Shown piece by piece: positions 26,105 to 64,000 of a stretch of 64,000 nucleotides of DNA. Positions within the stretch are counted from its first letter, which is position 1, and every line of letters begins with the position of its first letter. The stretch lies in sequence record MH719082.1. One strand, written 5' to 3'. Made by a program: the position numbers and the translations under genes. A model generated the notes under the pieces. The model was not told where the DNA came from. It saw only the letters and a program-made list of their open reading frames with translations, and searched no databases. Source of the stretch: Escherichia phage vB_EcoM_IME392.

Positions 26105-26180
26105 TGGTGGTCCATACTGGTTTCGAACCAGTGACCAAGCGATTATGAGTCGCCTGCTCTCACCACTGAGCTAATGGACC
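26105..26180 (-). tRNA. tRNA with CAU anticodon (elongator Met, or Ile2 if lysidinylated)
   Basis: Hand-folded cloverleaf: GGTCCAT-TA-GCTC-AGTGGTGA-GAGC-A-GGCGA-CTCATAA-TCGCT-TGGTC-ACTGG-TTCGAAA-CCAGT-ATGGACC-A-CCA. All stems are perfect. G1-C72, so not an initiator. Confidence 0.9.
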
Positions 26181-26649: not shown

Positions 26650-26725
26650 TGGTACTCCCTACTGGATTCGAACCAGTGACCGTCGGTTTAGAAGACCGAT
26701 GCTCTATCCTCTGAGCTAAGGGAGC
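26650..26725 (-). tRNA. tRNA-Arg (UCU)
   Basis: Hand-folded cloverleaf: GCTCCCT-TA-GCTC-AGAGGATA-GAGC-A-TCGGT-CTTCTAA-ACCGA-CGGTC-ACTGG-TTCGAAT-CCAGT-AGGGAGT-A-CCA. G1-U72 wobble, other stems perfect. Reads the rare AGA codon. Confidence 0.9.
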
Positions 26726-48945: not shown

Positions 48946-49605
48946 ATGATAAATATTATAGACCTCATGCGTAATGGTCAGGATCCTCTGAAGGCCATCC
49001 ATAAGGGAGTAGTCGTTGATAATAACGACCCTGCCCAAAAATGCAGAGTAAAGGTTAGGGTTCCTGGGGTACTCGATGGTGATGGTATCCCATGGGCCAT
49101 TCCTATTGCATCTGCATTCCTGGGGGATGGGGAATCTGACCGTGTGGAAATACCAGAAGTAGGTACCGAGGTATCTGTCTCGTTCCCCACAGGAGATCAG
49201 CATTTCCCATTCTACACTGGGAGATGGCACTCTAAGGAAGTCCCGGAAGAGTTTAAAGAGAATTATCCCAATAGGTACGGATTTAAGGATTCTACCGGCA
49301 CTGTATTCTATATAGATAAAGTGTCTAAGGAAGTTCATTTTAAGCACTGTTCTGGATTTCAGTTCGATATTGACCAAGAGGCTAATTTTACTCTCACCAC
49401 CCCAGGAGGAGGTAAGGTCGATATCGCTAAAGCTCTGGAGATAATCGCCAAAGAGCATATCAAACTGGATACTCCTCTTGTCGATGGAACAGGAGAGATC
49501 AAGGACAAGGTTCGCAAGATGTCGGAAGATCGCGCTATCTACAACGGTCACGATCATGTTGGCGATAGTGGTGGTAGTACATCTCCGCCTAACTCTAAAC
49601 AGTAG
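48946..49605 (+). CDS. Baseplate central spike (gpV / gp5 OB-fold family)
   Basis: GVVVDNNDPAQKCRVKVRVPGVLDGDGIPWAIP matches the gpV/VgrG N-terminal OB-fold block. Confidence 0.65.
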   Translation: MINIIDLMRNGQDPLKAIHKGVVVDNNDPAQKCRVKVRVPGVLDGDGIPWAIPIASAFLGDGESDRVEIPEVGTEVSVSFPTGDQHFPFYTGRWHSKEVPEEFKENYPNRYGFKDSTGTVFYIDKVSKEVHFKHCSGFQFDIDQEANFTLTTPGGGKVDIAKALEIIAKEHIKLDTPLVDGTGEIKDKVRKMSEDRAIYNGHDHVGDSGGSTSPPNSKQ

Positions 49606-49609
49606 GTTC

Positions 49610-49981
49610 ATGATGGTTCAGCCAATTTATCGAGATATAGACCAGACCCTTAAGCGTAACTCGCTTAAGGATGGTGATGCAGTATTTCAGGCCATAGTTA
49701 ATGTACTGAAGACTCGCAAAGGTACCAGAATGTTTAATATGGAGTTTGGTTCTAATCTCGAAGATATCATCATGGAACCATGCGACGATATCACTGGTCT
49801 GCAAGTTTATGCAGAGGTGGTCGACGCTGTTACGAGATGGGAGCCAAGAGCCCTGTTAGACCGAGGTAAAACTAAGGTTACTCCTGATCCGGATAATCAC
49901 ATATTCTGGGTAGACTTATGGTTCTCTGTCAAAGGAATCGATGGTCAAGAATTTAACTACGAGGTGGGTCTGAAACGATGA
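49610..49981 (+). CDS. Baseplate wedge protein, gp25/GPW family
   Basis: LKTRKGTRMFNMEFGSNLEDIIMEP ... VTRWEPRA match GPW_gp25 blocks. Start placed at ATG 49610. Confidence 0.7.
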   Translation: MMVQPIYRDIDQTLKRNSLKDGDAVFQAIVNVLKTRKGTRMFNMEFGSNLEDIIMEPCDDITGLQVYAEVVDAVTRWEPRALLDRGKTKVTPDPDNHIFWVDLWFSVKGIDGQEFNYEVGLKR

Positions 49982-51351
49982 ACATAATTCAAGATTCCTC
50001 TCTATCCTTCGACCAGATCAGAACGGATTTAGAGAACTATATTAAGTCTCTTCCAGATTATGAGACTAAGTGGAAGGACTTCTACGAGGCTGGTGCTGGC
50101 GAAACAGTACTTAATACTGGTGCTGGTATCACTGCATTCTTAGCTTACGCTGCCTACATGAACCGCCGAGATTCGTTACTGGATTTCGGCAATATGACCT
50201 CGACCATCGTGTCTATTGGGTCTGCATTAGGTTACGTGTATAATCGTAAATCTGCTCCTCTTCTCCAGATTACGTTTACATCCACTGAGCAAGTTTACTG
50301 GGATAAGGAAGATCCTATCGGTAACTACATGGGTCGTTCTCTGGTTCTCACCAACTCCACCCAAATAGAAGTTGGCGTGAACACCATTGTGGTTGCTATA
50401 GGTGATTGGGTCTCTCAGGAGATAACCATCACTGATGCTAAGGATTTTAAAGGTATCAACGTACCTATTCAGCCTGATAATAATCTGGTTAACCTGTATA
50501 TCGATGGAGAGAAGATCTCCTACACCACAGCTGCGGAAGATATGGATTCGGACAATGTCCTAATTCGTTCTTACTTCTCGGGAATATTCATTATCTTCGG
50601 GAACGGGTCACTGGGCAGGAAGGCTGCTGTTAACCAGGTACTTAAGATAGAGTACGTTGCTCCCGCTGATAAACTAGATGGGTTAACTCTGGATCCTACC
50701 AAGATTCAGTTATACGTTGAAAATACGAGTAACTCATCTGAAGTTAAATACCCTGGGTCAGACCCTGATAGTCCTGAGAAGATCGTTGCTATTGCTCCTG
50801 GTTATTATTCAGCCAAGAGACGTCTGGTTACTCTGGACGATTACGCTTCGATAGGTGCTTCTTATCAGGGTGTGGTAAGTGCTAACGCTGCTCTTCCGAC
50901 TACTTCTTGCTGCTCGGTTAACGTCTCGTACCTACGAGCCGATGAATTAACCATGAATGATGCTATGAAGGCAGATTTCGAGAAGTATATGCTGCAGTAC
51001 GCCATGCTGGGTTCTAACATAAATGTTATAGACCCTATCAGGATCATGGTCGATGTTAAGATGCGAGTGGTTATTGACTCCGGAGCTGATACGGATGCCA
51101 TTACCAAGAAGATTCGTGAAACCATAAATAAAAAGTGCATGACTAACGGTGCATTCTTTACGGTTAACGATATGACTCTGCCAGAGTCTCTTCGCGTTAG
51201 ACGTATCTACATTAAGCAGCCTATTCTTGACCGACAGGCTAAGTACAATGAGTACTATAAGCTCCGCAAACTGGAGATCAGTTATACGGAAGATCGGACT
51301 CTGGTAGATTCCGGAGGCACAGATAAGAATGCGGGGTATGAGTATGGCTAA
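49978..51351 (+). CDS. Baseplate J-like protein (gp6/gpJ)
   Basis: 457 aa directly after the gp25-like gene with a 4-nt overlap, the canonical W-J order. Confidence 0.55.
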   Translation: MNIIQDSSLSFDQIRTDLENYIKSLPDYETKWKDFYEAGAGETVLNTGAGITAFLAYAAYMNRRDSLLDFGNMTSTIVSIGSALGYVYNRKSAPLLQITFTSTEQVYWDKEDPIGNYMGRSLVLTNSTQIEVGVNTIVVAIGDWVSQEITITDAKDFKGINVPIQPDNNLVNLYIDGEKISYTTAAEDMDSDNVLIRSYFSGIFIIFGNGSLGRKAAVNQVLKIEYVAPADKLDGLTLDPTKIQLYVENTSNSSEVKYPGSDPDSPEKIVAIAPGYYSAKRRLVTLDDYASIGASYQGVVSANAALPTTSCCSVNVSYLRADELTMNDAMKADFEKYMLQYAMLGSNINVIDPIRIMVDVKMRVVIDSGADTDAITKKIRETINKKCMTNGAFFTVNDMTLPESLRVRRIYIKQPILDRQAKYNEYYKLRKLEISYTEDRTLVDSGGTDKNAGYEYG

Positions 51352-52822
51352 GTTCAACACTCTAGATTACTTCTCTCCTAACCTTAGAGGGAACGAGTTA
51401 TATAAGTTCTTCTCGCAGGTGCTGGATCATGGTCTAGAGACTGTTGTCTTTCCGGAGATGGATAAAAATACGGCGATTTATGATCCTAGTAAACCGTCTT
51501 ATGATCCGATTTATATCCTGGAGCTACTGGGTCAACCAGACTTAGCAGATCTCATAACTACCGAGGTAGACCAGAACTCAGTATCTGTACTCCTCCCAAG
51601 TATCCTTGATAACAAGGGTATGAAGGATGGGGTTGATCTTATCTTTAAGCTGATAAATGTAGAGATAGAAGAGATATTGTATCAGAAGACTCCGGAAGGC
51701 TGCTCACTGGCAACCATCCTGCTTCCTAAGAACGTGATCTTGTCTACTCGGCAGATTAAGCTAATTGATCGTCTGTCGCGTAAGGTATTTCCGATATGCG
51801 TAAGACTTACCGGTATCGCTAACTGTCTTCCAGATGGCGTTGAATCTCTCGGAAGCGCCTCCTTGGACACCAGTTGGTTGCTAGACACATCAATCCTGGA
51901 TGGTTCAGTAGGTATACGAGTCCCAGATATTTCGGATACTCTATGGCTGCGATTCTGTCTCGATATTATGTCGGAGATGGAAGTACCTCTTGAAGTGTTG
52001 ATTGATCGCTTCTCGGATCGTCTGATGAACTCTTATCTGACTGTATTCGATAGGAGAACTATCAAGCTAGATAATGGTCTTATTCTGGATATGGGTACAT
52101 ACTTAGATCTCCAGAATACCGACACTGCTCACAGCAGACTCTATAGCTCATTGGCTAAGTTTAATGTAGATTTAAGCGCCGATTCCAGAACTACTGAGAT
52201 TGAGTCCTTACTGGACTTATCAGACTTGGTAGCTGGGTTGGAGTTTAAGTCCTCTATGCTGCGTGAGATCTTCCTGTTCTTGGATATCGACCTCTCAGAG
52301 TTCGGATTCCAGAATTACATGGATAGGAAGATAGAGCACTTATCCAAGGGGATAGAGCAAGTAAATTATGGATATGAGGGTGGTAATTACGCTGATGGTT
52401 ACGATTTAACTAACTATCAGGGTTTCGAATACGAGAACTTATACGTAATCCAATCTCATCGTGATGGCCAAACTCAGCGTAGCGGGACGGCTTATTACGG
52501 ATTGCCGGAAATAGACTGGCTACACTTCGAAGGTATGGACTTCATTAATGGGTCTTACCTGCTGGATGGTACTCGTTATCTTCACCAGGAGTTCATTAAA
52601 AAGATCAAAGTGTACGATTGGTATACTCATTGGTCTAGCTACCGAGAAGCTATGTTCCTAACCACTCATAAGACCGAAAGACTCTTAGAGAAACGGGATG
52701 GGACTATTCTCCATGACGGAACTTATAATCGCGGTGAGAAAGTAACTCGTTACGGATTCGAACCTCTGTACAACGACGTTATTAGTCACGATGATACTTA
52801 CTATCGCGATGCCAATCTATAG
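51329..52822 (+). CDS. Baseplate/fiber-attachment protein (gpI-like position)
   Basis: Follows the J-like gene. An alternative start is ATG 51344. Confidence 0.35.
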   Translation: MRGMSMAKFNTLDYFSPNLRGNELYKFFSQVLDHGLETVVFPEMDKNTAIYDPSKPSYDPIYILELLGQPDLADLITTEVDQNSVSVLLPSILDNKGMKDGVDLIFKLINVEIEEILYQKTPEGCSLATILLPKNVILSTRQIKLIDRLSRKVFPICVRLTGIANCLPDGVESLGSASLDTSWLLDTSILDGSVGIRVPDISDTLWLRFCLDIMSEMEVPLEVLIDRFSDRLMNSYLTVFDRRTIKLDNGLILDMGTYLDLQNTDTAHSRLYSSLAKFNVDLSADSRTTEIESLLDLSDLVAGLEFKSSMLREIFLFLDIDLSEFGFQNYMDRKIEHLSKGIEQVNYGYEGGNYADGYDLTNYQGFEYENLYVIQSHRDGQTQRSGTAYYGLPEIDWLHFEGMDFINGSYLLDGTRYLHQEFIKKIKVYDWYTHWSSYREAMFLTTHKTERLLEKRDGTILHDGTYNRGEKVTRYGFEPLYNDVISHDDTYYRDANL

Positions 52823-52830
52823 GTGATTAG

Positions 52831-53598
52831 ATGAGCAATTATACTGGGGCATTTAACTTTCATGCTCAGGTGTACCAATTTGAAGAAAGTGATGTGGTTA
52901 AAGGTGGCCCGGACGGCATTGATAACGTGCCTCTTACCCAGCTGTCAGATCGTACGTTTTATCTTAAGGCTCTTGCTGACTTTACATTCCTTAAGCTATT
53001 CAATCTTAATCCTCTCGGCTCGTTCAAACAAGGATTCCAGATTAACGTGGCTGGGTATGCGGTCTTCGACGAGGCCTCCGGTAAGTGGTTTAAGTGGACA
53101 GGATCTCTACCTAAAGTAGTGGTTAAGTCTTCTAAGCCAGAAACTACTGGAGGTATCTATGATCCAACCACCAATCCGAGCGGTAAGTGGGTGGCTATTG
53201 ACTTCAGTGTTCTAGACCTTGGCGCTGGGGTTAAGATCCCTACAGCAGCTGCTCCTGGTAATCTGTATAGCGGTAAGTACAATCCAGCCTTCGTTAAGAT
53301 TGAGAATGTCTCCAATCTAGACATAGCAGAAGCCATATATACCAGACTAGGGAATGTGGTTACTGTTAATGGCAAGATCACTGCTTCTGCTACCGATGCC
53401 GGAGAAGTAATGAAAATAGGAATTGGCTTACCTATTAACGCTACCTTCTCAGATGACTCAAGCCTCTCAGGAGTTGGCGTTGGTATAGTAGCTGGTCAGA
53501 TTTATGCCGATGTGGACAGTAGTGTGGCTGTTCTTGAGATTAATCAGGGTAGTACAGACGAGCTGTCTCTGAGATACACGTTCTCTTACACTATATAA
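52831..53598 (+). CDS. Receptor-binding protein 1 (short fiber/spike with shared N-terminal adaptor)
   Basis: N-terminal GGPDGIDNVPLTQLSDRTFYLK and GKWFKWTGSLPKVVVKSSKPETTGG adaptor motifs, shared with ORFs 53611, 59505 and 62616. Confidence 0.6.
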   Translation: MSNYTGAFNFHAQVYQFEESDVVKGGPDGIDNVPLTQLSDRTFYLKALADFTFLKLFNLNPLGSFKQGFQINVAGYAVFDEASGKWFKWTGSLPKVVVKSSKPETTGGIYDPTTNPSGKWVAIDFSVLDLGAGVKIPTAAAPGNLYSGKYNPAFVKIENVSNLDIAEAIYTRLGNVVTVNGKITASATDAGEVMKIGIGLPINATFSDDSSLSGVGVGIVAGQIYADVDSSVAVLEINQGSTDELSLRYTFSYTI

Positions 53599-53610
53599 TA
53601 GGATATCGAA

Positions 53611-54528
53611 ATGGGTACTTATCAGGGTAAAAATCAGTACGTAGAGGACATCTATACCTTCGAACGTACTGACAAAGTGTCGGGTGGTGATGACGGTATT
53701 GATAACGTACCCATTAAGAATCTTACCGACAGAACTACATATCTCCGTAGTCTAGCATTGAATTCATTCCTGGATATCTATGGGATTAACCCAGTAGGTA
53801 CTTTCGGGATAGGATTTGATCTCCAGGACTCTGGGGATGGTGTGTATGACGAGGTGTCTGGCAAGTGGTATTACTGGCTAGGCTCCTTCCCCAAATCTGT
53901 TGCCGAGAATTCTTCTCCGGAAGATACTGGTGGTATCTTCGACCCAGAAAGTAATCCAGATGGATTATGGACTGAGGTAATTCCGGTAAACCAGCGTCAG
54001 GTAGATATGGCTGCTCGGGCATTCCGAGTTAAGACCGAAGAAGTCCAGTTCATGAAAGTAGGTCGTCCTCTCGACGGCTTTCGTGTATTGTATGACTTAG
54101 CTTCCCAGGAAGCTTATCGTTTACCTATGGATATCCCTGAAGGATCAACTATTGTTAGCTTAACAGACGGAGGGTGGCTAGAGCATAGCAATGGCAGGGT
54201 AAACTTATCTGCTTACGCCGTCGAATTAGAAGAGTATAAGTACTTTACCGGAGGCGACTTCAGTACCGGCTTTACTCTACGTCAGAACCACTGCATAGTT
54301 ATGCATGATGGTGTTCTGTATCGCTGGGATGGCGATTTTCCGAAGACCGTAAATGCTAACAGTACTCCAGAATCAGACGGTATTGGTGATGGTAAATGGG
54401 TTCCTGTTAAGACTGGTGCCCTGTATCGCTATGCTACTGTTGCCCAGTTAGATAGTGTTGAGAATGCTCTAACTACTCGCATAAACGAAGTAGAGAGCGC
54501 CGCTTTTGTTAACGCATTACTGTTCTAA
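53611..54528 (+). CDS. Receptor-binding protein 2 (paralogous N-terminus)
   Basis: GGDDGIDNVPIKNLTDRTTYLR and GKWYYWLGSFPKSVAENSSPEDTGG. A second copy of the W..G.FPK motif occurs near the C-terminus (YRWDGDFPKTVNANSTPESDG). Confidence 0.6.
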   Translation: MGTYQGKNQYVEDIYTFERTDKVSGGDDGIDNVPIKNLTDRTTYLRSLALNSFLDIYGINPVGTFGIGFDLQDSGDGVYDEVSGKWYYWLGSFPKSVAENSSPEDTGGIFDPESNPDGLWTEVIPVNQRQVDMAARAFRVKTEEVQFMKVGRPLDGFRVLYDLASQEAYRLPMDIPEGSTIVSLTDGGWLEHSNGRVNLSAYAVELEEYKYFTGGDFSTGFTLRQNHCIVMHDGVLYRWDGDFPKTVNANSTPESDGIGDGKWVPVKTGALYRYATVAQLDSVENALTTRINEVESAAFVNALLF

Positions 54529-54537
54529 GGAATACCC

Positions 54538-54879
54538 ATGGCAGCTAAATTTAAACGAGCTAGCGCTACGCTAACTAAATCTGAATCTACCATTTATACT
54601 ACTCCGGCTACTGGTGCTATAATCGTTGGAATCCTGGCAGCCCATAATGGTGTTACAGATGCTGCAGCTCAGTTTCAGCTTAAGATTAAACCTGCATCTG
54701 GAAATGATGTATACCTGCTAGGTAAAGACACTAATCTTCCTCAGAAGTCGGCATTGAATATCGATTCTGCTAAGGTAATTCTCATGGATGGTGATCAGGT
54801 AGTAGCTTCAGCATCTGCTGTAGATACTTCTAATAACTCGAACATGGTAGACCTGACTCTTTCCATTGTGGAGAACTAA
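54538..54879 (+). CDS. Hypothetical 113-aa protein in the fiber locus
   Basis: ORF with tight spacing in the fiber locus. Confidence 0.4.
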   Translation: MAAKFKRASATLTKSESTIYTTPATGAIIVGILAAHNGVTDAAAQFQLKIKPASGNDVYLLGKDTNLPQKSALNIDSAKVILMDGDQVVASASAVDTSNNSNMVDLTLSIVEN

Positions 54880-54880
54880 T

Positions 54881-56227
54881 ATGGGTGGTTATATTGGTTT
54901 CAATCCATCTGATGGTGCTGGTGAACTTCGTAATGAATTGACTCCTAAGATCAAGAACAACCAGGATAACATCATCGAGTTGTGGGCGAATGACTTAGCC
55001 GATTGTGGTTACAATCTGGCAGCTACTTTCGAGTTCGGTGGTATCTTATCTAACCGATTCGATCTGGTAGTATCTCTTGATCGTCAGCGTGCATATTCAT
55101 GGAAGGGTAACTTTCCAGTAGATATTGCAAACGCACCTATCACCCATTCTAATTGGGTACCTTGGTCGATCGACCAAATGGGTGCTGGTAACTTATTGGA
55201 AGTTAAGTGGGTATCCTCTCGTAAGTTATTAGGGTCACCATTATGGGGTGGATTCGTAGCAGCTGATGGTGGTATCTTCTCACGTATCTTGTATCCTGAT
55301 ACTTGGGCAGCAGTCAATGCTGGACTAGTACAAGTATGTCCTGAAGCTGACTGGGTAGCTGATCCTACTAAGCGCCACTGCTATACTACTGGTGATGGTA
55401 CTACTACCTTCCGAGTACCTGACTTAAATGGTGCGTACCGTCATCCTAGTGACTCCTCTAAGAACTCCATTCCAGGATTATTCTTACGTGGTGATAATGG
55501 TAGTGACTACGGATACGTCCAGCGTAATGCTGCACCTAATATTACTGGTATTATACAAGGTCGTACTTCTGGTACTTATGGTCGACTATTCAGTCAATCT
55601 ACTATTAATAGTGGAGCATTACAAACTAGTGATGAGAATGGTGGTGAATTCGCTACTGGTACAGTAACTGCATCGACTCCATCTGATCGTATGAGTAAGT
55701 TACTATTTGATGCATCAAAATCACTTACACCAGGTGCTGAGGCTTACGGTCGTGCTGAACCTAATGGTGCACCTGCTGATGAAGTCCGACCTAACAGTGC
55801 AGTAGGTTGTTACGCTATCCGTCTACAAGGTCGAGTTGTGAATCCCGGTACGGTGGATCTGTTATCATTAGTTGATACAGTTGCAGGTATGACTATAGGT
55901 AATACACCTAGCAGTAATCAGATTCCTAACATGAAGCATTGGACTCGTGGAGGGTCAGGTCGTGCATGGTGGAGGAAAGAACCTGATGGATTCATTAGAC
56001 AGGGAGGATTCTTTACTGCTAATGTTAGACCTGGTTCAGGTACTAAAGTGTACGTTGATGTAACATGGGCTATACCATTCCCTAATGAATGTAACTCAGT
56101 AACCGTAGGTGATGCTGGATTCGGTGATGGTAATATGTGGGGCGCCACTAATATCACCAGGACTGGAGCTCGTTTATGGTGTAGCGCAGTAGGCGAGGGT
56201 GGTTACTACTTGGCTGAGGGCTACTAA
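54881..56227 (+). CDS. Tail fiber protein with tail-collar-type domain
   Basis: Start placed at ATG 54881 (GGAGAACTAAT-ATG). TFRVPDLNG motif. 141-nt segment 55292-55432 is paralogous to 57033-57173. Confidence 0.65.
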   Translation: MGGYIGFNPSDGAGELRNELTPKIKNNQDNIIELWANDLADCGYNLAATFEFGGILSNRFDLVVSLDRQRAYSWKGNFPVDIANAPITHSNWVPWSIDQMGAGNLLEVKWVSSRKLLGSPLWGGFVAADGGIFSRILYPDTWAAVNAGLVQVCPEADWVADPTKRHCYTTGDGTTTFRVPDLNGAYRHPSDSSKNSIPGLFLRGDNGSDYGYVQRNAAPNITGIIQGRTSGTYGRLFSQSTINSGALQTSDENGGEFATGTVTASTPSDRMSKLLFDASKSLTPGAEAYGRAEPNGAPADEVRPNSAVGCYAIRLQGRVVNPGTVDLLSLVDTVAGMTIGNTPSSNQIPNMKHWTRGGSGRAWWRKEPDGFIRQGGFFTANVRPGSGTKVYVDVTWAIPFPNECNSVTVGDAGFGDGNMWGATNITRTGARLWCSAVGEGGYYLAEGY

Positions 56228-56655
56228 TGGCTAATTATCTATATAGCAATTCTCGTAAATCGTTCTATCCAGTATCGTTAATAGAAAATTATCAAAATAG
56301 CATAAACGGATTACCTGAAGATTTAGTAGAAGTCAGTGATTCTGACTTTAATGAATTTTCTCAGAGTCGTACTAATGAGTGCTGTAATTTAACTGAATCA
56401 GGATTCGAGTGGATTCCTAAAGGTCCTGAACCAGTATCAGTCGAAGATGCTCATCGTATCAAGAGTATCTTGATAAATAGTGCTAATAAGACTATTAGTA
56501 CCTGGCAGACTAAGTTGATGCTTAATAGACTATCTGACGAAGATAAAGTCAAACTGAATGCTTGGTTGGACTACATCGATGAGCTGGAAGCTATCAATCC
56601 TGACTCAGTAGAAGATACATCAGCTATCCCGTGGCCTACTGCTCCTGAAGCATAA
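56227..56655 (+). CDS. Tail fiber assembly chaperone (Tfa/gpG-like)
   Basis: C-terminal LSDEDKVKLNAWLDYIDELEAINPD...IPWPTAPEA is the typical Tfa ending. ATGA-type junction with the fiber gene. Confidence 0.7.
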   Translation: MANYLYSNSRKSFYPVSLIENYQNSINGLPEDLVEVSDSDFNEFSQSRTNECCNLTESGFEWIPKGPEPVSVEDAHRIKSILINSANKTISTWQTKLMLNRLSDEDKVKLNAWLDYIDELEAINPDSVEDTSAIPWPTAPEA

Positions 56656-56666
56656 AGAGGTATAAA

Positions 56667-58118
56667 ATGTCAAATGGATATATTGGTACCTACCCTAAAT
56701 TCGCTATTTATTCTCCTGAGAAATTGGCGAAAGGTACCACCACTAAGACTCTGCAGTATGCTCCAGGATCAGCTTATGCAATTCTGGTAGTAGTAGGCGG
56801 GGCGATTCAGGAACCTAACGTAGCCTATACTGTAGCAGGTAATGTCATTACTTTCACGGAGACGCTCCCGTACGATGGATGGGTTCAGTACCGTGGACTT
56901 GAAGGTAAGGATGCTACTGACTTTATCGCAGCTGCAGGTGATCCAGTACTATCAGCACGTTGGGCATTCTCACGTGATCATATCTGGGATGGATTCGTTC
57001 CACTAGATGGTCAGGAATTATCTCGTGCTATGTACCCGTCAGCATGGGAGGCTATCAATGCTGGATTAGTACCAGTCGAGGATGATGCTGCATGGTTGGC
57101 TGATCCCAAGAAACGTGCATCGTTTACTAAGGGTGATGGTACTTCAACATTCCGAGTACCTGACCTTAATGGTAAGTTGGGTGATTCTATAAAGGGACTG
57201 CACATCCGTGGAGATAATGGTGATTCAGCTCGTACCGGTAAAGTACTCCAGAATGGCGCTCCGAATATTACAGGATACACTAATTTATTAGGGTATAACA
57301 CATGGGCAAATAATGCCGGAGCGGCCAACGGTGCATTAAACTTAAGCCAGGGTTTAGCATTCTCCAACGGTACCGATTTAGTTGTAAACTCTTCTTACAG
57401 AGAATTAAGAGCTAATTTAGATGCATCTAAATCTAATGCATCTTATGGTCGTGACGGCACTGATGAAGTGCGTCCTAATGCAGCTATTGGATGCTGGGTA
57501 GTCAAGTTATTCGCAGGTATCGCTAATGCTGGTGTAGCTGATCTGCAGCAAGTGCTAGTCACGTTAGCTGGTAAGATGGATAAGACCAAGTACGAATTCG
57601 GTGTACCAATGATTGGCGTACCATTCTACTGGCCATCGGATAAGATGCCTGATGAAGTATATCCTGAGCTGAAAGGTATGCACTTCATCCAAGCTCGTGG
57701 TGATAACTTCGATGCTGAACTGTATCCTAAGTTAGCTACTGTTTATCCTAATAATAAGTTACCAGATTTACGTGGTGAATTCATCCGTGGTTGGGATGAC
57801 GGACGTGAAGTGGATACTGGACGAGCTCTGCTATCGCGTCAATCACATTCAATTATTGAACACTCACACTATATGGAGTTGTGGACAGGTGACGTACTTC
57901 ATTCTGGGGATGCTAGAGATGGGGTAAATGCAGGAGTACTGGCTACCTATGGTGATGGTGGGTCAATTAAATCTGACGAATCAGGTAATCATGTACCCTC
58001 CTTAGTACGAGCTATTAATACTCGTAATATTAATCGTTACAACGTAAATAGCGAAAATATAAGCACAGAAAACCGTCCACGTAACGTAGCATATAACATC
58101 ATTGTAAGGGCATTATAA
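56667..58118 (+). CDS. Tail fiber protein with two collar-type domains
   Basis: TFRVPDLNG and LPDLRGEFIRGWDDGR motifs. Paralogous to ORFs 54881 and 58802. Confidence 0.65.
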   Translation: MSNGYIGTYPKFAIYSPEKLAKGTTTKTLQYAPGSAYAILVVVGGAIQEPNVAYTVAGNVITFTETLPYDGWVQYRGLEGKDATDFIAAAGDPVLSARWAFSRDHIWDGFVPLDGQELSRAMYPSAWEAINAGLVPVEDDAAWLADPKKRASFTKGDGTSTFRVPDLNGKLGDSIKGLHIRGDNGDSARTGKVLQNGAPNITGYTNLLGYNTWANNAGAANGALNLSQGLAFSNGTDLVVNSSYRELRANLDASKSNASYGRDGTDEVRPNAAIGCWVVKLFAGIANAGVADLQQVLVTLAGKMDKTKYEFGVPMIGVPFYWPSDKMPDEVYPELKGMHFIQARGDNFDAELYPKLATVYPNNKLPDLRGEFIRGWDDGREVDTGRALLSRQSHSIIEHSHYMELWTGDVLHSGDARDGVNAGVLATYGDGGSIKSDESGNHVPSLVRAINTRNINRYNVNSENISTENRPRNVAYNIIVRAL

Positions 58119-58726
58119 TGAGCATTGAATTTAACGATCAAGGTTTTGCCACCACTTCTGGTAAAGTGATGGTTTATAACTACAATGAAGATACTCGTGA
58201 ATTCACATTTAATCGTGAAGAGTTTATCTACGTAGGTGTATCGGTACCAGCTCACTCCACAATCGTTCCAGTGCCTGCAGAACGTGAAGGATATGCTCGA
58301 GTGTATCATGAAGATACCAAGAAGTGGGAATATGTAGAAGATCACCGTGGAGTAGAAGTTTACTCAAAAGCTGATCAAACTAAAGTAACTATCCAGGAAC
58401 TCGGACCTATCGACGATATCTACACTACGATTGCTCCTACTTCAATCCATGATAATTGGGATGAAGATACTGGTGCATGGGTACTAGATGAAGTTGCTGA
58501 GCACGAAGCTAAGGTGGTTGCGGCTGATGCCAAGAAAGTAACATTGATTGAGGATGCTAATGCTTATATCAATAGTAAGCAGTGGCCATCCAAACTGGCA
58601 ATGGGCCGACTGAGCGATGCTGATAAAGTCAAGTTCAATTTGTGGCTAGATTATCAGGAGGAAGTAGAAGCTATTGAAACTACTGATCCTGATACTATCG
58701 TATGGCCAGAAGCACCTGCTAAGTAA
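58118..58726 (+). CDS. Tail fiber assembly chaperone (Tfa/gpG-like), second copy
   Basis: C-terminal LSDADKVKFNLWLDYQEEVEAIETTDPDTIVWPEAPAK. 1-nt overlap with the fiber stop. Confidence 0.7.
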   Translation: MSIEFNDQGFATTSGKVMVYNYNEDTREFTFNREEFIYVGVSVPAHSTIVPVPAEREGYARVYHEDTKKWEYVEDHRGVEVYSKADQTKVTIQELGPIDDIYTTIAPTSIHDNWDEDTGAWVLDEVAEHEAKVVAADAKKVTLIEDANAYINSKQWPSKLAMGRLSDADKVKFNLWLDYQEEVEAIETTDPDTIVWPEAPAK

Positions 58727-58801
58727 TATTTATTAAGGGGTAGTTATGTCAATTAATTACATGACTCCAGATAGTATCGTGATTGTAAGTGAGGTGTCAA
58801 T

Positions 58802-59425
58802 ATGAGCCTCACCCGTCTTAAGTATTTAATGAACGAAGGTACAGATGCTGAAGTTGAAGCGTATCTACGCCAGCTGGGTATCGGTAATGGAGCTCCATTA
58901 ATAGGAGTACCGTTCCCGTGGGTTCATCCTACCAAGATGCCTGATGAGATATTTACTTCAATGAAGGGTATGCGATTTCTGAAGATGAATGGTCAGACAT
59001 TCGATCCAGAAACATACCCAGAACTGGCTAAGCTATGGACAACTAATCAGTTACAAGATCTACGTGCACAATTTATCCGTGGATGGGATGACGGTCGAGG
59101 CATGGATGCAGGACGAACGATCAATACTGGTCAGTCAGATTCTGCCCCAGAAATATCTGGTTGGTTCAGGACTGTTAATACTGAGAATGCATCAATCTGG
59201 GAAAGCATAACATCAGGATTTGGTTCTGGAGCTCTCTACGGTACTAATACTAAAGGTCAGTATTATAGATTAGCGGGACTTCCAATGGATATTAACGCTA
59301 CCTATAAGTATCCTACAGTAATTAACTTCTTGGCATCACGATCATCTTCAGTATATGGACGAAACGGCACCAATGAAATTGTACCTAAAAACGTAGCATT
59401 TCTGTACATCGTTCGAGCTAAATAA
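58802..59425 (+). CDS. Short tail-fiber tip protein (collar-domain only)
   Basis: GVPFPWVHPTKMPDE...LQDLRAQFIRGWDDGR is homologous to the C-terminal half of ORF 56667 (nt 58904-59098 versus 57615-57806). Confidence 0.55.
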   Translation: MSLTRLKYLMNEGTDAEVEAYLRQLGIGNGAPLIGVPFPWVHPTKMPDEIFTSMKGMRFLKMNGQTFDPETYPELAKLWTTNQLQDLRAQFIRGWDDGRGMDAGRTINTGQSDSAPEISGWFRTVNTENASIWESITSGFGSGALYGTNTKGQYYRLAGLPMDINATYKYPTVINFLASRSSSVYGRNGTNEIVPKNVAFLYIVRAK

Positions 59426-59504
59426 ATAAATAGCTACAATAGCAGGTGCAACTTGTACATGGGTTATGATAAACGAAGTGTTGACAATATCATAGGGTGA
59501 TTAA

Positions 59505-62492
59505 ATGTCTTATAATCCAATTGTAGAAGGGTCAACTTGGCCCGAGACTATTCGCCGCTTAGAAAAGACGGATAGGGCAGAAGGCGGTCAACTAGTTACT
59601 AATTCTAAGGATGAACCAGTATCCGGACATATTAATCATCCAATAACCCAATTAGCTACTAGAACCTCCATTTTAAAAAAGTCTAATTTATCGATAATTA
59701 ATAATACTAAAGAACAGTGGAAGTTATTACTCGGTGACTTAGGACTAACTCTTGTTGGCACTTTTGAAGAAGGTGCTACAGTAAACAGTAAAAAGGATGC
59801 TGTCTGGCATATTGATGGTGGCCAGTGCTACGTGTGGGGTGGCGTGCTCCCTAAGACTGTATATGCTAACTCCTCACCGCTAACTACTGGTGGTGTCTCT
59901 TCTGATGCTTGGGTTAGTATTGGTGATACCGCACTGCGAGGGCAAATATCAGACCCGGATGGTGCAACAAAATACCCCGAATTGCAGATTGCTCGATGGC
60001 GTGACATTTTCGACCCTCGTGGTTGGGGAGCTAAAGGTGATGGATTAGTCGATGATACTGTGGCTCTTAATAATCTGTTAAGCGCTGCTCCAGTAGGTCA
60101 GAAAATTAATGGTAACGGCAGAACCTATAAAGTATCCGCACTTCCAGATATTAGCAGATTCGTTAACACTCGTTTCGTTTATGAGCGTATTCCTGGCCAG
60201 CCGCTTTATTATGTATCTGACGAGTTTGTTCAGGGTGAGTTAATTAAAATAACCGATACCCCTTATTACAATGCTTGGCCTCAGGATAAAGCGTTCGTTT
60301 ACGACGATGTTATTTACTGTCCGTTCATGGCTAGCGATCGGCACGGGGTTAGCAGGCTTCATGTATCCTGGGTTCGCTCAGGTGATGACGGACAGACCTG
60401 GACGACCCCGGAGTGGCTAACTGACCTACACCCTAATTACCCAACAGTTAACTACCACTGTATGAGTATGGGGGTGATGCGTAATCGTCTCTTTGCGATG
60501 ATTGAGACCCGTACTTTAGCAGCTAACGCATTAGTGACCTGTGAGTTGTGGGATCGCCCCATGTCCCGTAACTACCATCTGACAGGTGGTATAACAAAAG
60601 CTGCCAACCAGCCTGTGGCTGTAATTACCATCCCTGAACACGGTCTTTTTGCTGGGGATTTTGTTAACTTCTCGAACTCTGGGGTGACTGGCGTTTCTGG
60701 GAATATGACTGTAACTTCAGTTATTGACCGCAACACGTTTACAGTTACCACGCCAAATCAACAAGCATTCGACCAAAATAACTCTACCAGCCGCTGGCAT
60801 ATGGGGACATCGTTCCATCAGTCACCATGGCGTAAAACCAGCCTTGGATTGATCCCTATGGTTACCGAGGTTCACAGTTTTACCGCCATCAATAACGATT
60901 CATTCATGATGGGGTACCATCAGGGTGATGTTGCTCCGCGTGAAGTAGGTATGTTGTATTTCCCTGATGCATTTAACAATCCTGGGCATTATATAAAACG
61001 ACGTATCCCTGCTGAATATGAGCCGGATGCGGCAGAACCCTGTGTTAAATATTTTGACGGTGTTCTTTATGTTGTAACCCGTGGAACTCGGTCGGACCGT
61101 CTGGGTAGTTCGCTTCATCGTAGTAATGATTTGGGTATAACCTGGCAATCATTGAGGTTCCCGAATAATGTCCACCACTCCACCCTGCCATTCGCTAAGG
61201 TAGGAAACGAACTGATTCTTTTCGGCACTGAACGCGCCGACAACGAGTGGGAAGCAAACGCACCCGACCAGCGATATTTTAGTTCTTACCCACGAACGTT
61301 TTACACGCGAGTGAACCTCGACACCTGGAACCTGGATAATACTCAGTGGGTGAATATCACTGACCAGATTTATCAGGGTGGTATTGTTAACTCTGGCGTC
61401 GGTGTCGGATCGGTCGTCGTGAAAGATAGTTATATCTATTACATGTTCGGTGGGGAAGACCATCTGAACCCATGGACATATGGAGATAACTTAGAGAAAG
61501 ACCCATTCAAATCAGACGGTCATCCCTCAGATTTGTATTGTTACAAAATGCAGATCGGTCCAGACAATCGTGTTTCTCGTGATTTCAGGTACGGTGCTGT
61601 ACCTGACAGAGCGGTTCCAGTGTTTTTTGATACGAATGGAGTTCGCACTGTTCCTGCTCCAATGGAATTTACAGGGGATTTGGGTTTAGGTCATGTGACC
61701 ATTAGAGCCAGCACCAGTAGTAACATTCGCTCTGAAGTTTTAATGGAAGGTGAGTATGGGTTTATCGGGAAATCTGTACCGACTAATAACCCTGCAGGTC
61801 AGCGCATCATATTTTGCGGAGGCGACGGTACCAGTTCTTCTACTGGTGCACAGATTACGCTTTACGGTGCGAGTAACACAGCTTCTCGCAGGATAGTTTA
61901 CAACGGAGATGAGCATCTGTTTCGGAGTGCTGATGTTAAGCCTTATAACGATAACGTCATTGCGCTTGGTGGGCCTAGCAACCGTTTCACCACTGCATAC
62001 CTCGGAAGCAACCCTATTGTTACTTCTAACGGAGAGAAGAAAACAGAGCCGGTAGTTTTTGATGATGCTTTTTTAGATGCTTGGGGCGATGTTCATTACA
62101 TCATGTATCAGTGGTTGGATTCTGTACACCTGAAAGGAAATGACGCTAGAATCCATTTTGGCGTAATTGCTCAGCAGATCCGCGATGTATTCATTGCTCA
62201 CGGTCTGATGGATGAGAACAGCACGGATTGCCGCTATGCTGTTCTGTGTTACGACAAATATCCTCGCATGACAGACATGGTGTTCTCTCACTATGAAATA
62301 GTTGAACACACTGACGAGGAGGGTAATGTCACTACCACGGAAGAACCTGTATACACCGAGGTGGTTATTCACGAAGAGGGTGAGGAGTGGGGTGTGAGGC
62401 CTGATGGAATTTTCTTTGCTGAGGCAGCATTCCAGAGAAGAAGACTGGAAAGAATCGAAGCCAGACTTTCCGATCTTGAAAAGAAGCAGTAA
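59505..62492 (+). CDS. Endosialidase tailspike (endo-N-acetylneuraminidase, GH58) with C-terminal intramolecular chaperone domain
   Basis: Asp-boxes SGDDGQTW and SNDLGITW. Long colinear stretches match my recollection of coliphage K1F endoNF (GWGAKGDG..., QKINGNGRTYKV, ITDTPYYNAWPQDKAFVY, GDVAPREVG, GHPSDLYCYKM...). The C-terminal S74-type chaperone domain has a Ser-Lys dyad in VTS-NGEKK (Ser codon 62025-62027, residue 841; Lys 846). Confidence 0.85.
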   Translation: MSYNPIVEGSTWPETIRRLEKTDRAEGGQLVTNSKDEPVSGHINHPITQLATRTSILKKSNLSIINNTKEQWKLLLGDLGLTLVGTFEEGATVNSKKDAVWHIDGGQCYVWGGVLPKTVYANSSPLTTGGVSSDAWVSIGDTALRGQISDPDGATKYPELQIARWRDIFDPRGWGAKGDGLVDDTVALNNLLSAAPVGQKINGNGRTYKVSALPDISRFVNTRFVYERIPGQPLYYVSDEFVQGELIKITDTPYYNAWPQDKAFVYDDVIYCPFMASDRHGVSRLHVSWVRSGDDGQTWTTPEWLTDLHPNYPTVNYHCMSMGVMRNRLFAMIETRTLAANALVTCELWDRPMSRNYHLTGGITKAANQPVAVITIPEHGLFAGDFVNFSNSGVTGVSGNMTVTSVIDRNTFTVTTPNQQAFDQNNSTSRWHMGTSFHQSPWRKTSLGLIPMVTEVHSFTAINNDSFMMGYHQGDVAPREVGMLYFPDAFNNPGHYIKRRIPAEYEPDAAEPCVKYFDGVLYVVTRGTRSDRLGSSLHRSNDLGITWQSLRFPNNVHHSTLPFAKVGNELILFGTERADNEWEANAPDQRYFSSYPRTFYTRVNLDTWNLDNTQWVNITDQIYQGGIVNSGVGVGSVVVKDSYIYYMFGGEDHLNPWTYGDNLEKDPFKSDGHPSDLYCYKMQIGPDNRVSRDFRYGAVPDRAVPVFFDTNGVRTVPAPMEFTGDLGLGHVTIRASTSSNIRSEVLMEGEYGFIGKSVPTNNPAGQRIIFCGGDGTSSSTGAQITLYGASNTASRRIVYNGDEHLFRSADVKPYNDNVIALGGPSNRFTTAYLGSNPIVTSNGEKKTEPVVFDDAFLDAWGDVHYIMYQWLDSVHLKGNDARIHFGVIAQQIRDVFIAHGLMDENSTDCRYAVLCYDKYPRMTDMVFSHYEIVEHTDEEGNVTTTEEPVYTEVVIHEEGEEWGVRPDGIFFAEAAFQRRRLERIEARLSDLEKKQ

Positions 62493-62615
62493 ATAAAGAC
62501 TTTTACCGTAGGTAGGAGAAGGTAGAGGCTTCAATTTAAGATTTAACTTAAACTAATCACCACTCTAAAGTTACTAAGTGTTTGTACATCATGTAATATT
62601 TTATGGAGATCACCA

Positions 62616-64000
62616 ATGGGCGGTCGTTCTAAGTTATTTAGCGAACTGGGCGGAGCTCCTCTTAATACTTATCAGCATGATAACCAGACTCTCGATATTC
62701 GCGAGTTAGAAAATCAGCAGAAAGTATTAGACGAGACTCTTGCCGAAACAATAGGCAACGTTAACGAGTTGCAACAGACTGCTGGTCAGTCTATGTATAT
62801 CCTCGGTAACTATGCCTCCGGAATGGTGATCGAGAACGACCGCCAGTACGTCAGATATGATAATCTGCTGTACTATTGGACTGGTCCTGTACCGTTCACT
62901 ACCACCGGCAACTTCTACGAAGAATCCTACTGGACTGGTGGGGTACAGAGCGGTATCGAGTGGAGTTACGAGGTACAGGAAGATGGGGAATTCGAGTTTA
63001 ATATTCCTTACTCCTTTACCAACGTACGTCTATTCGTAGGTGGTGTCCGCCTTACTCGCGTAGAAGATTACACTATCGATGTGATTAATCGCAAGATCAC
63101 TCTGACTAAGGTTAAGCTGTCGAAGGGTGTCCTGGTGACTGCCGAGCTGAACTCTCGTGATGCTCTTAGCGTTACCCAGGATCGCATCGATAGCCTTACC
63201 AGAGAGATCTCAGAGAAAGTAGGTTTCGTTAATTACAAACTTACTGATCTGTCTGAAGGTCAGAGCCTGACTCTCACTACCAGAGTCCAGACTGTAAGCT
63301 TCTCAGTAAATGGGGAGTATTATAAATGGGATGGCGTTCTTCCTAAAGTTGTTAATTATGGAGATCCGGAGCCATCTCAATCTGAACAGGGGACTGGTAA
63401 GTGGATTCCTGTAGGTTCTGGTGCTCTTAAGTCAGAGCTCATGACTGCTGGCGAAACTACTGGTGCTGCTATTGTCTATCTGAGATATGGTGGCACGGTG
63501 GCTGATGGTATTCGATACATCACCCCAGAAATGGCTCGAGCTAAAGGCGACGGTACTACGGACGATACAGCAGCTCTTCGCTCTGCTGTTACCCTGGCTA
63601 AGACTTATGGTCTTAAGCTTATGGGTATGGGTACTTACAAGATCTCTAACCAATCGGTGGATATTTCCGGGGTAGTGATCGAGAACCTAACCATAGTTGG
63701 TACCGGTGCTAGTTCACAGCTGCTGGTTAATGGCGATACGGACATAACTAAGCTGAACCTTAGCAAATGCGGTATTCGTCACATCAACGGTATCTTTAAA
63801 CTCGACCAGTTCGAAATTAATGACTGTTCTGCGACTGCTGCTCTGCTGTGTCAGCAATTAGCAGCTAATAGCCAACTGTTCGTCACTAATGGTATTATGC
63901 GTCGCTGTAACTATGGTTACCTCCGTCAGGGTAGTCCTGCATCTTCCAAGCCGCTCACTGCGACTCTGCTACAGAACTTACAGTTCTTCGACATGAAGAG
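62616..64000 (+). CDS. Tailspike with right-handed beta-helix (pectate-lyase-like) depolymerase domain, 3'-truncated by window
   Basis: Not in the track because there is no stop in the window. My translation from ATG 62616 (GGAGATCACCA-ATG) is open to 64000: MGGRSKLFSELGG... It has the adaptor motif YYKWDGVLPKVVNYGDPEPSQSEQGTGKW, then ARAKGDGTTDDTAALRSA, typical of beta-helix tailspikes. Confidence 0.7.
   Translation, partial: MGGRSKLFSELGGAPLNTYQHDNQTLDIRELENQQKVLDETLAETIGNVNELQQTAGQSMYILGNYASGMVIENDRQYVRYDNLLYYWTGPVPFTTTGNFYEESYWTGGVQSGIEWSYEVQEDGEFEFNIPYSFTNVRLFVGGVRLTRVEDYTIDVINRKITLTKVKLSKGVLVTAELNSRDALSVTQDRIDSLTREISEKVGFVNYKLTDLSEGQSLTLTTRVQTVSFSVNGEYYKWDGVLPKVVNYGDPEPSQSEQGTGKWIPVGSGALKSELMTAGETTGAAIVYLRYGGTVADGIRYITPEMARAKGDGTTDDTAALRSAVTLAKTYGLKLMGMGTYKISNQSVDISGVVIENLTIVGTGASSQLLVNGDTDITKLNLSKCGIRHINGIFKLDQFEINDCSATAALLCQQLAANSQLFVTNGIMRRCNYGYLRQGSPASSKPLTATLLQNLQFFDMK

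Follow-up and report, generated by a model that had tools for sequence, protein, structure and literature searches.

A putative endoNF-type endosialidase tailspike of mosaic origin in the myovirus vB_EcoM_IME392

Our analysis of a 64,000-nucleotide window from Escherichia phage vB_EcoM_IME392 (record MH719082.1) revealed that a protein deposited only as a "putative tail fibers protein" (AXY86125.1, 100% identical) is very probably a functional endoNF-type endosialidase tailspike, carried by a myovirus and recombined from three parts. ORF calling gave the exact coordinates of the gene, an intact frame of 995 aa on the plus strand (59505..62492), and a literature search found no paper mentioning this accession. 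The product aligns gap-free with the endosialidase endoNF of phage K1F (gp17) at 80.8% identity (residues 77-994 against 147-1064). A PDB search matched residues 171-840 to endoNF itself (1v0e/3gvl; E=0) and residues 720-994 to 3gw6, a construct of the endoNF chaperone (1.8e-175), and also returned the endosialidase of phi92 (4hiz; 7.7e-231). Overall, endosialidases from unrelated phage families share 79-97% identity with the catalytic part, the stalk and the chaperone of the spike. The first-pass annotation had recognized an endosialidase here, and the presence of all endosialidase Pfam domains, of both Asp-boxes, of the catalytic residues and of the Ser841/Lys846 dyad bears this out. Its core reading, a myovirus spike in which horizontal exchange joined an endoNF-type enzyme to an N-terminal adaptor specific to the phage, is likewise upheld by the sheath and baseplate genes and by the swapped slot in sibling contigs, as detailed below (Table 1).

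Table 1. Features of the spike gene and its flanks, in window coordinates
Feature	Position	Strand	Evidence
Upstream leader, common with sibling contigs	59479..59504 (26 nt)	+	backbone conservation returns ahead of the gene
Module A, lineage-specific N-terminal anchor (codons 1-72)	59505..59720	+	95.8% aa to P0054
Module B, Tail_spike_N, PF18668 (codons 73-134)	59721..59906	+	Pfam match at residues 85-141, 2.4e-15
Conserved linker AWVSIGDTALRGQISDPDGATKYPELQIARWRDIFDPRGWG (codons 135-175), predicted start of the endosialidase cassette	59907..60029	+	82.5% to YX22 and 983-aa endosialidases
Endosialidase N-terminal extension, End_N_terminal, PF12218 (codons 176-242)	60030..60230	+	Pfam 1.2e-35
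Six-bladed catalytic beta-propeller, End_beta_propel, PF12217 (codons 243-684)	60231..61556	+	Pfam 2.3e-205
Inserted beta-barrel, End_beta_barrel, PF12195 (codons 354-436)	60564-60812	+	Pfam 3.6e-40
Asp-boxes	60378-60401 and 61122-61145	+	motif match
Stalk, End_tail_spike, PF12219 (codons 687-840)	61563..62024	+	Pfam 7.7e-78
C-terminal intramolecular chaperone/Peptidase_S74, PF13884 (codons 841-995 and stop)	62025..62492	+	Pfam match at residues 844-901, 1e-08
Ser841; Lys846	62025-62027; 62040-62042	+	dyad by alignment to K1F
Downstream end of the exchanged cassette, 55 nt beyond the stop	62493..62547	+	no match to siblings
Backbone resumes: intergenic region and next tailspike gene	62548..64000	+	94.2% nt to L006 5432-6885

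The backbone of this 116-kb phage is that of a myovirus with a contractile tail. Besides the myovirus name, the same genome encodes a tail sheath (phrog_23, 2.2e-62), a baseplate wedge (phrog_219, 2.8e-26) and a baseplate hub (phrog_430, 1.2e-12).

The enzymatic part of the spike is well preserved. The End_beta_propel match spans positions 1-366 of the 367 in the profile, and the two Asp-boxes (S-x-D-x-G-x-T-W) named in the first-pass annotation, SGDDGQTW and SNDLGITW, were located at residues 292-299 and 540-547, respectively. The residues of K1F endoNF with described catalytic roles (H350, R549, E581, R596 and R647; PMC12632334) are all five conserved in the gap-free alignment, as H280, R479, E511, R526 and R577. 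At the amino acid level, the propeller is 97.3% identical to that of P0001, 96.4% to UE-S5a, 95.7% to YX22 and 79.4% to K1F, while the N-terminal extension shares 77.6% with K1F. The stalk (687-840) is even closer to K1F (94.2%), and its residues R767, S778 and Q783 align with K1F R837, S848 and Q853, which we take to be the stalk residues that bind polysialic acid.

The C-terminus matches Peptidase_S74 with 35.7 bits against a cut-off of 22 and is 93.5% identical to the corresponding K1F domain. In the string VTSNGEKK (839-846), S841 and K846 align with K1F S911 and K916 at the same i, i+5 spacing, in agreement with the dyad proposed at first pass; the role of this Ser/Lys pair in S74 self-cleavage has been described (PMC3742443). 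Since the K1F record annotates a mature protein of 1-910 and a released domain of 911-1064, and position 910 aligns with T840, the mature spike is predicted to end at Thr840. The earlier proposal of a self-cleaving domain thus stands, with its boundary shifted by one: not an end at Ser841 and a chaperone of 154 aa, but an end at Thr840 and a released part of 155 aa (841-995). By close homology to K1F endoNF, we infer that the spike would trimerize with the help of this intramolecular chaperone, which would then cut itself off between Thr840 and Ser841 through the Ser841/Lys846 dyad. In its mature form (about residues 1-840), the spike would use the active site of the propeller to degrade alpha-2,8-polysialic acid, the polymer of the K1 capsule, and this degradation may allow IME392 to reach the outer membrane. 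IME392 is therefore predicted to target K1-encapsulated E. coli, a capsule type found in neonatal meningitis, avian and urinary-tract pathogenic strains.

Two other views of the enzyme deserve consideration. The sequences of propeller and barrel diverge from K1F by 19-29%, and phi92 gp143 has been reported to be bifunctional, cutting both alpha-2,8 and alpha-2,9 linkages (PMC13450770); the spike might accordingly be suited to another substrate than endoNF, either alpha-2,9 or mixed-linkage polymers (K92, as phi92 gp143) or O-acetylated K1. We consider this improbable, given the conservation of residues in both the catalytic and the stalk site, the origin of the nearest relatives from phages isolated on uropathogenic and avian pathogenic E. 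coli (UPEC and APEC), and an identity of only about 52% to the phi92-type enzyme. It is highly improbable that the spike is catalytically dead, serves for binding only, or is the product of a decaying gene kept for a structural role: the 995-codon frame is intact, the endoNF alignment is free of gaps, every tested catalytic, Asp-box and chaperone residue is conserved, and lytic K1 phages have catalytic domains 96-97% identical to this one, even though the GenBank annotation names no enzyme.

A functional endosialidase being the preferred reading, its arrival in this genome can be followed with the help of two sibling metagenome contigs, L005 and L006, which share 94.6% identity with the window over 48999-54561. 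In blastn comparisons, positions 59479-59720 match L005 9977-10216 and L006 2903-3142 at 92.6%, and the flanks together with codons 1-72 are conserved at 93-95% nt overall. This similarity breaks right after codon 72 (TGG), and blastn found zero similarity to either sibling over 59721-62547. The same slot is filled in L005/L006 by P0054, which has an unrelated spike body from codon 73. On the downstream side, similarity to endosialidase genes stops at 62497, 5 nt past the stop codon, and similarity to the sibling backbone resumes at 62548, ahead of a further tailspike gene that starts at 62616, runs off the window and also contains a Tail_spike_N match (3.2e-06). Horizontal exchange of the spike body in the IME392 lineage is thus supported directly.

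Comparison of the available relatives divides the gene into three predicted modules, namely an anchor (1-72), a Tail_spike_N module (73-134) and the endosialidase cassette (135-995), and the joints of this mosaic fall at predicted domain boundaries. The junction with the backbone had been placed at about residue 130 in the first-pass annotation, but the sibling contigs put it at codon 72/73; near 130 lies a second junction, internal to the gene, where the Tail_spike_N module meets the endosialidase proper. In the same vein, colinearity with K1F had been proposed to start at around residue 130. This holds for the DNA (codon 134) and fails for the protein, which is already colinear and gap-free from residue 77. 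Indeed, DNA similarity to K1F and YX22 begins only at 59902-59906, the endosialidase genes matching from codon 133-134 onward.

The middle module is a Tail_spike_N domain of the TSP1/Gp66 N-terminal type (56.8 bits; cut-off, 25), for which AF2 gave pLDDT values of 71-92 over about residues 70-140. Its best relative, P0056 (72.9% aa; 79.7% nt over codons 79-142), is encoded among the baseplate genes of a myovirus contig of 145 kb, whereas the corresponding domains in other endosialidases are only 41-45% identical. As K1F gp17 has a homologous domain of its own (residues about 157-210, 42% identity), Tail_spike_N belongs to general tailspike architecture and is not a myovirus-only adaptor. The linker that follows recurs in the spikes P0057, P0058, P0061 and P0063, which have unrelated bodies, as well as in the K5 lyase gene of UE-S5a (74.6% nt); it probably served as the site of homologous recombination for the second joint. 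Because the middle-module donor is only 80% identical at the nucleotide level, codons 73-134 could also reflect unsampled endosialidase alleles instead of a separate recombination event.

The anchor is rare and falls in no curated family. Besides its near-identical copy in P0054, it shares 49% identity with residues 1-59 of P0121/EP_H11 e30238 (560 aa) and 61% with residues 1-59 of P0119 (175 aa), each of which joins it to yet another body. An exhaustive HMMER search of 1.84 billion representatives returned only four matches at E<=1e-3, and a PDB search with residues 1-72 gave no match even at E<=10. A word-indexed protein search with the 75-aa anchor also returned nothing, a null that is uninformative since P0054 demonstrably carries the anchor. 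Structure prediction with AF2 yielded pLDDT values of about 38-40 for residues 1-66, from a shallow alignment of 11 sequences, and a model of residues 1-175 was confident only over about 70-140, the structured domain beginning at about residue 69. Eleven positions (E20, D23, G27, G28, G41, N44, P46, L50, R53, T54 and L57) are invariant across the anchor paralogues. Residues 14-139 of the spike distantly resemble the N-termini of the products of two upstream ORFs, 52831-53598 and 53611-54528 (30-32% identity, E about 7e-8), and N-terminal similarity is absent from the adjoining fibre genes (54866-59425). An adaptor shared with neighbouring receptor-binding proteins, as suggested at first pass, is therefore found in distant form for those two ORFs and not for the adjoining fibres. 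Taken together, these comparisons point to an anchor restricted to the IME392/EP_H11 lineage, with paralogues in the N-termini of the two upstream proteins. The first ~60-72 residues would hold the spike on the virion, presumably by attachment to either the baseplate or an adaptor protein.

Base composition follows the same boundary. GC3 rises from 0.278 to 0.429 at codon 72/73 (p = 0.013), in coincidence with the junction, the low value placing the first 72 codons, a small sample, as an outlier with the fibre block. The endosialidase differs from the adjacent fibre genes (GC3 of 0.429 vs 0.309, Fisher p = 1.7e-9), as had been noted earlier, but the fibre genes are the low-GC3 outliers. The endosialidase body agrees with the backbone (0.462, p = 0.06), and the gene is among the most typical of the window in GC, GC3 and codon usage (codon-usage divergence rank 48/49). 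The idea of a compositionally foreign endosialidase was rejected on these grounds. Over 59300-62700, scans for sigma-70 promoters (7 vs 7.0 in shuffles) and intrinsic terminators (4 vs 2.6) stayed at shuffle level. A motif upstream of both the endosialidase and the next spike gene, TTGTACAT, was discarded as chance, with 4 occurrences in the window for 2.15 expected and 14/100 shuffles reaching 4 matches.

Could a simpler history explain the gene? A K1F-like podovirus may have given everything from about residue 130 in one event, the first ~130 residues being a native adaptor. The start of K1F-type DNA similarity at codon 134 and the distant resemblance of residues 14-139 to two upstream IME392 proteins fit such a scheme, which is nevertheless decidedly improbable. 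Codons 73-134 do not belong to the backbone, because the sibling contigs lose all similarity after codon 72, and they are 80% identical in nucleotides to a spike gene that belongs to an unrelated myovirus of 145 kb; furthermore, the catalytic domain shares 96-97% identity with N4-like phages and YX22, against 79% with K1F. Of the "podovirus-type" label given at first pass, the endoNF-type match is sound, but neither a podovirus donor nor a direction of transfer can be read from it, since the nearest propellers occur in N4-like podoviruses and also in the myovirus YX22 (95.7%). An assembly artefact joining IME392 reads to those of a co-isolated K1 phage would account for the exact 995-aa protein being on record from one contig only, namely the genome of IME392, and for the 33-nt junction string having 0 exact matches in IMG/VR. 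This is hardly credible, as both junctions are in frame and at domain boundaries, the backbone resumes downstream, the insert tiles two sources of which one is not an endosialidase phage, and no K1 phage in the collections exceeds 90% nt to the cassette.

The three-part recombinant assigns a function, that of a predicted K1 capsule depolymerase, to a protein labelled merely as a putative tail fibre, and provides an unusually clean natural case of tailspike cassette exchange, with breakpoints to the base. For the engineering of receptor-binding proteins, practical splice points lie at the anchor boundary behind residue 72 and in the linker near residues 135-150. Conceptually, nothing is new in this clear but ordinary swap of a phage receptor-binding module. 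Stummeyer et al. 2006 and Schwarzer et al. 2012 reportedly described modular endosialidase exchange between phage families, including the myovirus phi92. Such exchange among phage families is also covered in PMC13450770 and PMC10408124. A bolder and rather tentative proposal is that IME392 is an unrecognized K1-specific member of a rare, 'genetically unique' myovirus lineage with predicted hypermodified thymidine in its DNA, in which the ...KEQW end of the anchor (codon 72) and the SDPDGATKYPELQIARWRD linker might act as dedicated plug-in sockets. If true, these sockets would let spike bodies cross between T7-like, N4-like, P22-like and Ackermannviridae phages and the IME392 lineage despite DNA modification, and this lineage would be a natural chassis for retargeting.

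Finally, the IME392 spike can be placed among known systems. It has the domain order of K1F gp17 (Tail_spike_N, N-terminal extension, propeller and barrel, stalk, self-cleaving chaperone), but K1F starts with a T7 gp17-type tail-binding domain (PF03906, 1 to about 146) where IME392 has its 72-residue anchor. The closest catalytic, stalk and chaperone regions are those of the Gamaleyavirus (N4-like) phages UE-S5a/PBM-2 and of the metagenomic P0001, with 96-97% aa identity in the propeller and about 90% nt identity to the cassette from position 60018 onward. These proteins differ in their size (1062-1215 aa), in their long unrelated N-termini, with similarity to the IME392 spike starting only at residue 155, and in their podovirus genomes of about 73-76 kb. 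The endoNF-type spike of YX22 (WPH64569.1), an Ackermannviridae myovirus of the Aglimvirinae, is 90.4% identical over residues 81-994, Tail_spike_N included, although it has another N-terminus of 96 residues, a Tail_spike_N only about 45-50% identical and a 155-kb genome. The phi92 gp143 (endoN92; 4hiz)/phAPEC8-type spike has the same fold and, with only about 52% identity, represents a separate endosialidase clade; phi92 is the earlier example of an endosialidase among the multiple spikes of a myovirus baseplate (PMC13450770). The nearest counterpart in genomic context is P0054, the allele of the slot in L005/L006, which shares position, upstream leader and residues 1-72 with the IME392 spike and differs from residue 73 onward by an unrelated body of 606 residues, beta-helix-like and devoid of endosialidase and S74 domains.

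Far beyond chance, homology confirmed that the 995-codon ORF at exactly 59505-62492 encodes a predicted K1-type endosialidase, as the first-pass annotation had proposed from motifs and colinearity with K1F. An exact-sequence look-up identified the product as AXY86125.1, deposited as "putative tail fibers protein" in the 116,460-bp IME392 genome, and its functional annotation is mildly new. The tail sheath and the neighbouring 255-aa product likewise proved to be exact IME392 proteins. All phage endosialidase domains were found by Pfam in canonical order. Among solved structures, the K1F enzyme endoNF (1v0e, 3gvl) matched residues 171-840 with E = 0, the endoNF chaperone construct 3gw6 residues 720-994 (1.8e-175) and the phi92 endosialidase 4hiz residues 176-838 (7.7e-231). 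In local alignment, residues 77-994 form one ungapped block with K1F gp17 (endoNF) 147-1064 at 80.8% identity, in which S841 and K846 correspond to K1F S911 and K916, and H280, R479, E511, R526 and R577 to H350, R549, E581, R596 and R647, the K1F catalytic residues (PMC12632334). The domains, motifs, catalytic residues and Ser/Lys pair were all located.

Features of the window and of the endosialidase product (nucleotide positions unless residues or codons are indicated)
Feature	Position	Strand	Result
5-hmdU DNA kinase helical domain ORF	1740-2711	-	PF18723, 3.2e-35
BCCT transporter ORF, 460 aa	5577-6959	-	near-whole profile, E = 1e-92
921-aa ORF	13374-16139	-	Metallophos nuclease, AAA_23/SMC_N ATPase
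tRNA-Met (CAT)	26105-26180	-	
tRNA-Arg (TCT)	26650-26725	-	
Sibling match, L005	48999-54561		94.6% identity
497-aa baseplate-distal protein	51329-52822	+	
255-aa protein	52831-53598	+	
305-aa protein	53611-54528	+	
Fibre block, composition	54538-59425		GC3 0.309; vs endosialidase body p = 1.7e-9
Fibre block, no similarity to siblings	54562-59478	+	
Fibre and Caudo_TAP chaperone pairs	54866/56227; 56667/58118		
207-aa ORF	58802-59425	+	
Sibling match, L005 and L006	59479-59720		92.6% identity
Endosialidase gene	59505-62492	+	995 codons
No similarity to siblings	59721-62547		
Sibling match, L006	62548-64000		94.2% identity
Next tailspike gene	62616-64000	+	extends past window end
Tail_spike_N	residues 85-141		Pfam
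End_N_terminal	residues 176-242		Pfam
End_beta_propel	residues 243-684		Pfam; End_beta_barrel inserted at 354-436
End_tail_spike	residues 687-840		Pfam
Peptidase_S74	residues 844-901		Pfam
SGDDGQTW	residues 292-299		motif
SNDLGITW	residues 540-547		motif
VTSNGEKK	residues 839-846		motif
Endosialidase anchor	codons 1-72		GC3 0.278; vs codons 73-995 p = 0.013
Endosialidase body	codons 73-995		GC3 0.429; vs backbone p = 0.06
Backbone structural genes			GC3 0.462

By homology to endoNF, three chains would fold with the aid of the C-terminal chaperone, and the Ser841/Lys846 dyad would then cut between Thr840 and Ser841, setting free a 155-residue fragment. This boundary is predicted because the K1F record annotates a mature protein 1-910 and a C-terminal domain 911-1064; the earlier estimate of a spike ending at Ser841 with a 154-aa chaperone was off by one. 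The same homology predicts alpha-2,8-polysialic acid as the polymer degraded by the mature spike. In its stalk, R767, S778 and Q783 are conserved as the equivalents of K1F R837, S848 and Q853, which belong to a polySia-binding site.

Read from its alignments, the gene is a tiling of three modules, namely an anchor (codons 1-72), Tail_spike_N (73-134) and the endosialidase cassette (135-995), since similarity to sibling phages breaks after codon 72 and a second seam lies further downstream. In a sliding identity profile, residues 1 to ~85 are without similarity to three endosialidase carriers, identity is 35-60% over ~86-135 and high beyond. The large protein search returned a 678-aa protein (P0054) that shares residues 1-72 with the query at 95.8% identity, the remainder being unrelated and beta-helix-like. 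Its metagenome contigs, L005 and L006, belong to sibling phages with baseplate genes and gene order as in the window. Their alignment ends directly after codon 72 (...AAA GAA CAG TGG, K-E-Q-W), which, with the sibling matches in the table, delimits the swapped cassette: it starts at codon 73 and ends 55 nt beyond the stop. Within it, codons 79-142 share 79.7% nucleotide and 72.9% amino acid identity with the gene of P0056, a 720-aa spike encoded within the baseplate module on a myovirus contig of 145 kb; Tail_spike_N counterparts in other endosialidases reach just 41-45%. The match to the endosialidase genes of K1F and YX22 (Ackermannviridae) begins only at codons 133-134, and that of the N4-like phage UE-S5a only at codon 172. 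Together, the overlap of the P0056 and endosialidase matches and residues ~135-175 (...AWVSIGDTALRGQISDPDGATKYPELQIARWRDIFDPRGWG) make up a linker that recurs in many tailspikes whose bodies are unrelated (P0057, P0058, P0061, P0063) and even in the UE-S5a K5 lyase gene (74.6% nucleotide identity); homologous recombination could plausibly act on this linker. Patchy nucleotide identity within the cassette (for example, UE-S5a 93-99% and YX22 74-87% over codons 490-609; K1F 98% over codons 730-759 and 820-849) suggests further allele shuffling. The first-pass mosaic interpretation is thus supported, with its junction position and module number corrected; the base-level breakpoints and three-way tiling are mildly new.

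When 1.84 billion cluster representatives were scanned exhaustively with HMMER, only four matched the anchor at E <= 1e-3, and no solved structure did. Over residues 1-59, identity is 49% to the N-terminus of EP_H11 e30238 (P0121, 560 aa) and 61% to P0119 (175 aa), two proteins with differing bodies. The adaptor proposed to be shared with neighbouring receptor-binding proteins exists in a weak, paralogous sense in the 255-aa and 305-aa upstream proteins (~30% identity to the query N-terminus, E about 7e-8; common motif E20, D23, G27-G28, G41, N44, P46, L50, R53-T54, L57 plus Tail_spike_N) but is absent from the directly adjacent fibre genes (54866-59425). In an AF2 monomer (11-sequence alignment), structure is confident only at ~70-140 and residues 1-66 have a pLDDT of about 38-40. 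As weak evidence, this fits an anchor that would need the trimer or a partner to fold, and a domain boundary at the junction. The 305-aa protein has no enzymatic body but bears the anchor motif and a pair of Tail_spike_N domains; it may be a branching adaptor for the spikes. A relative encodes a counterpart of the 255-aa protein (P0057, 708 aa) with a complete spike body and one more Tail_spike_N.

The compositional contrast with the adjacent fibre genes is real, but opposite in sign to that implied, GC3 being low in the fibre block and not in the endosialidase; ranked by how far codon usage departs from the remainder of the window, the endosialidase gene is 48th of 49. Lacking DNA similarity to L005, the fibre block counts as a second cassette that was swapped with respect to that contig; GC3 there (0.29-0.32) is clearly below the genome mean of 0.45. 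The 207-aa ORF has no N-terminal attachment region, and its homology is confined to the C-terminal third of fibre 56667-58118 (residues 312-482, 35%, 4.5e-31); it could be what is left of an earlier exchange, or else an alternative tip of the fibre. In the next tailspike gene, kept in L006 (94% nucleotide identity), Tail_spike_N is accompanied by a similarity to the endosialidase N-terminal extension that stays below threshold; over its first ~330 nt, the gene shares 68% identity with the beginning of an EP_H11 gene (L001 32161).

A tail sheath (phrog_23, 2.2e-62) and the wedge and hub proteins of a baseplate are encoded in the window, so the assignment to myoviruses was correct. In a BLAST phage collection from which IME392 itself is absent, the only backbone relative is EP_H11 (111 kb, unclassified Escherichia phage), 93-95% identical in nucleotides up to ~52,096, then divergent across the whole receptor-binding cluster. 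This divergence begins in the gene of the 497-aa baseplate-distal protein, because DNA similarity stops inside it at about 52,096 (62.6% identity to the EP_H11 counterpart, 97.6% for the preceding wedge protein). According to two recent papers, EP_H11 and IME392 belong to the phages with predicted hypermodified thymidine, which fits the PF18723 domain; an endosialidase in this rare lineage is mildly new. The window also encodes a BCCT betaine/carnitine/choline family transporter. Lytic phage genomes do not usually contain full-length genes for membrane transporters, and we speculate that this one might bring in a precursor of the predicted hypermodification. The 921-aa chain resembles a fusion of the Mre11-Rad50 (SbcCD) kind, and two tRNA genes lie in an ORF-poor stretch between early and structural blocks.

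Modular exchange of endosialidases is well known already, and they are established on myoviruses such as phi92 (PMC13450770). The proposed horizontal exchange of a "podovirus-type" enzyme is supported as exchange, its donor and direction not being decidable from these data. In a 15-billion-sequence collection, no other protein had the same 995-aa architecture and no match covered >94% of the query; the exact sequence was recorded on one contig only, and the junction string was not found in IMG/VR. Related cassettes are present on many backbones: T7-like in K1F, with a PF03906 N-terminus; N4-like in UE-S5a, PBM-2 and the metagenomic P0001; 47-kb phages and prophages, with 983-aa proteins; P22-like prophages, with a PF09008 N-terminus (P0020, 64% identity); SP6-like phages (811 aa, about 62%); phi92/phAPEC8-type myoviruses (about 52%); and YX22 (90%).
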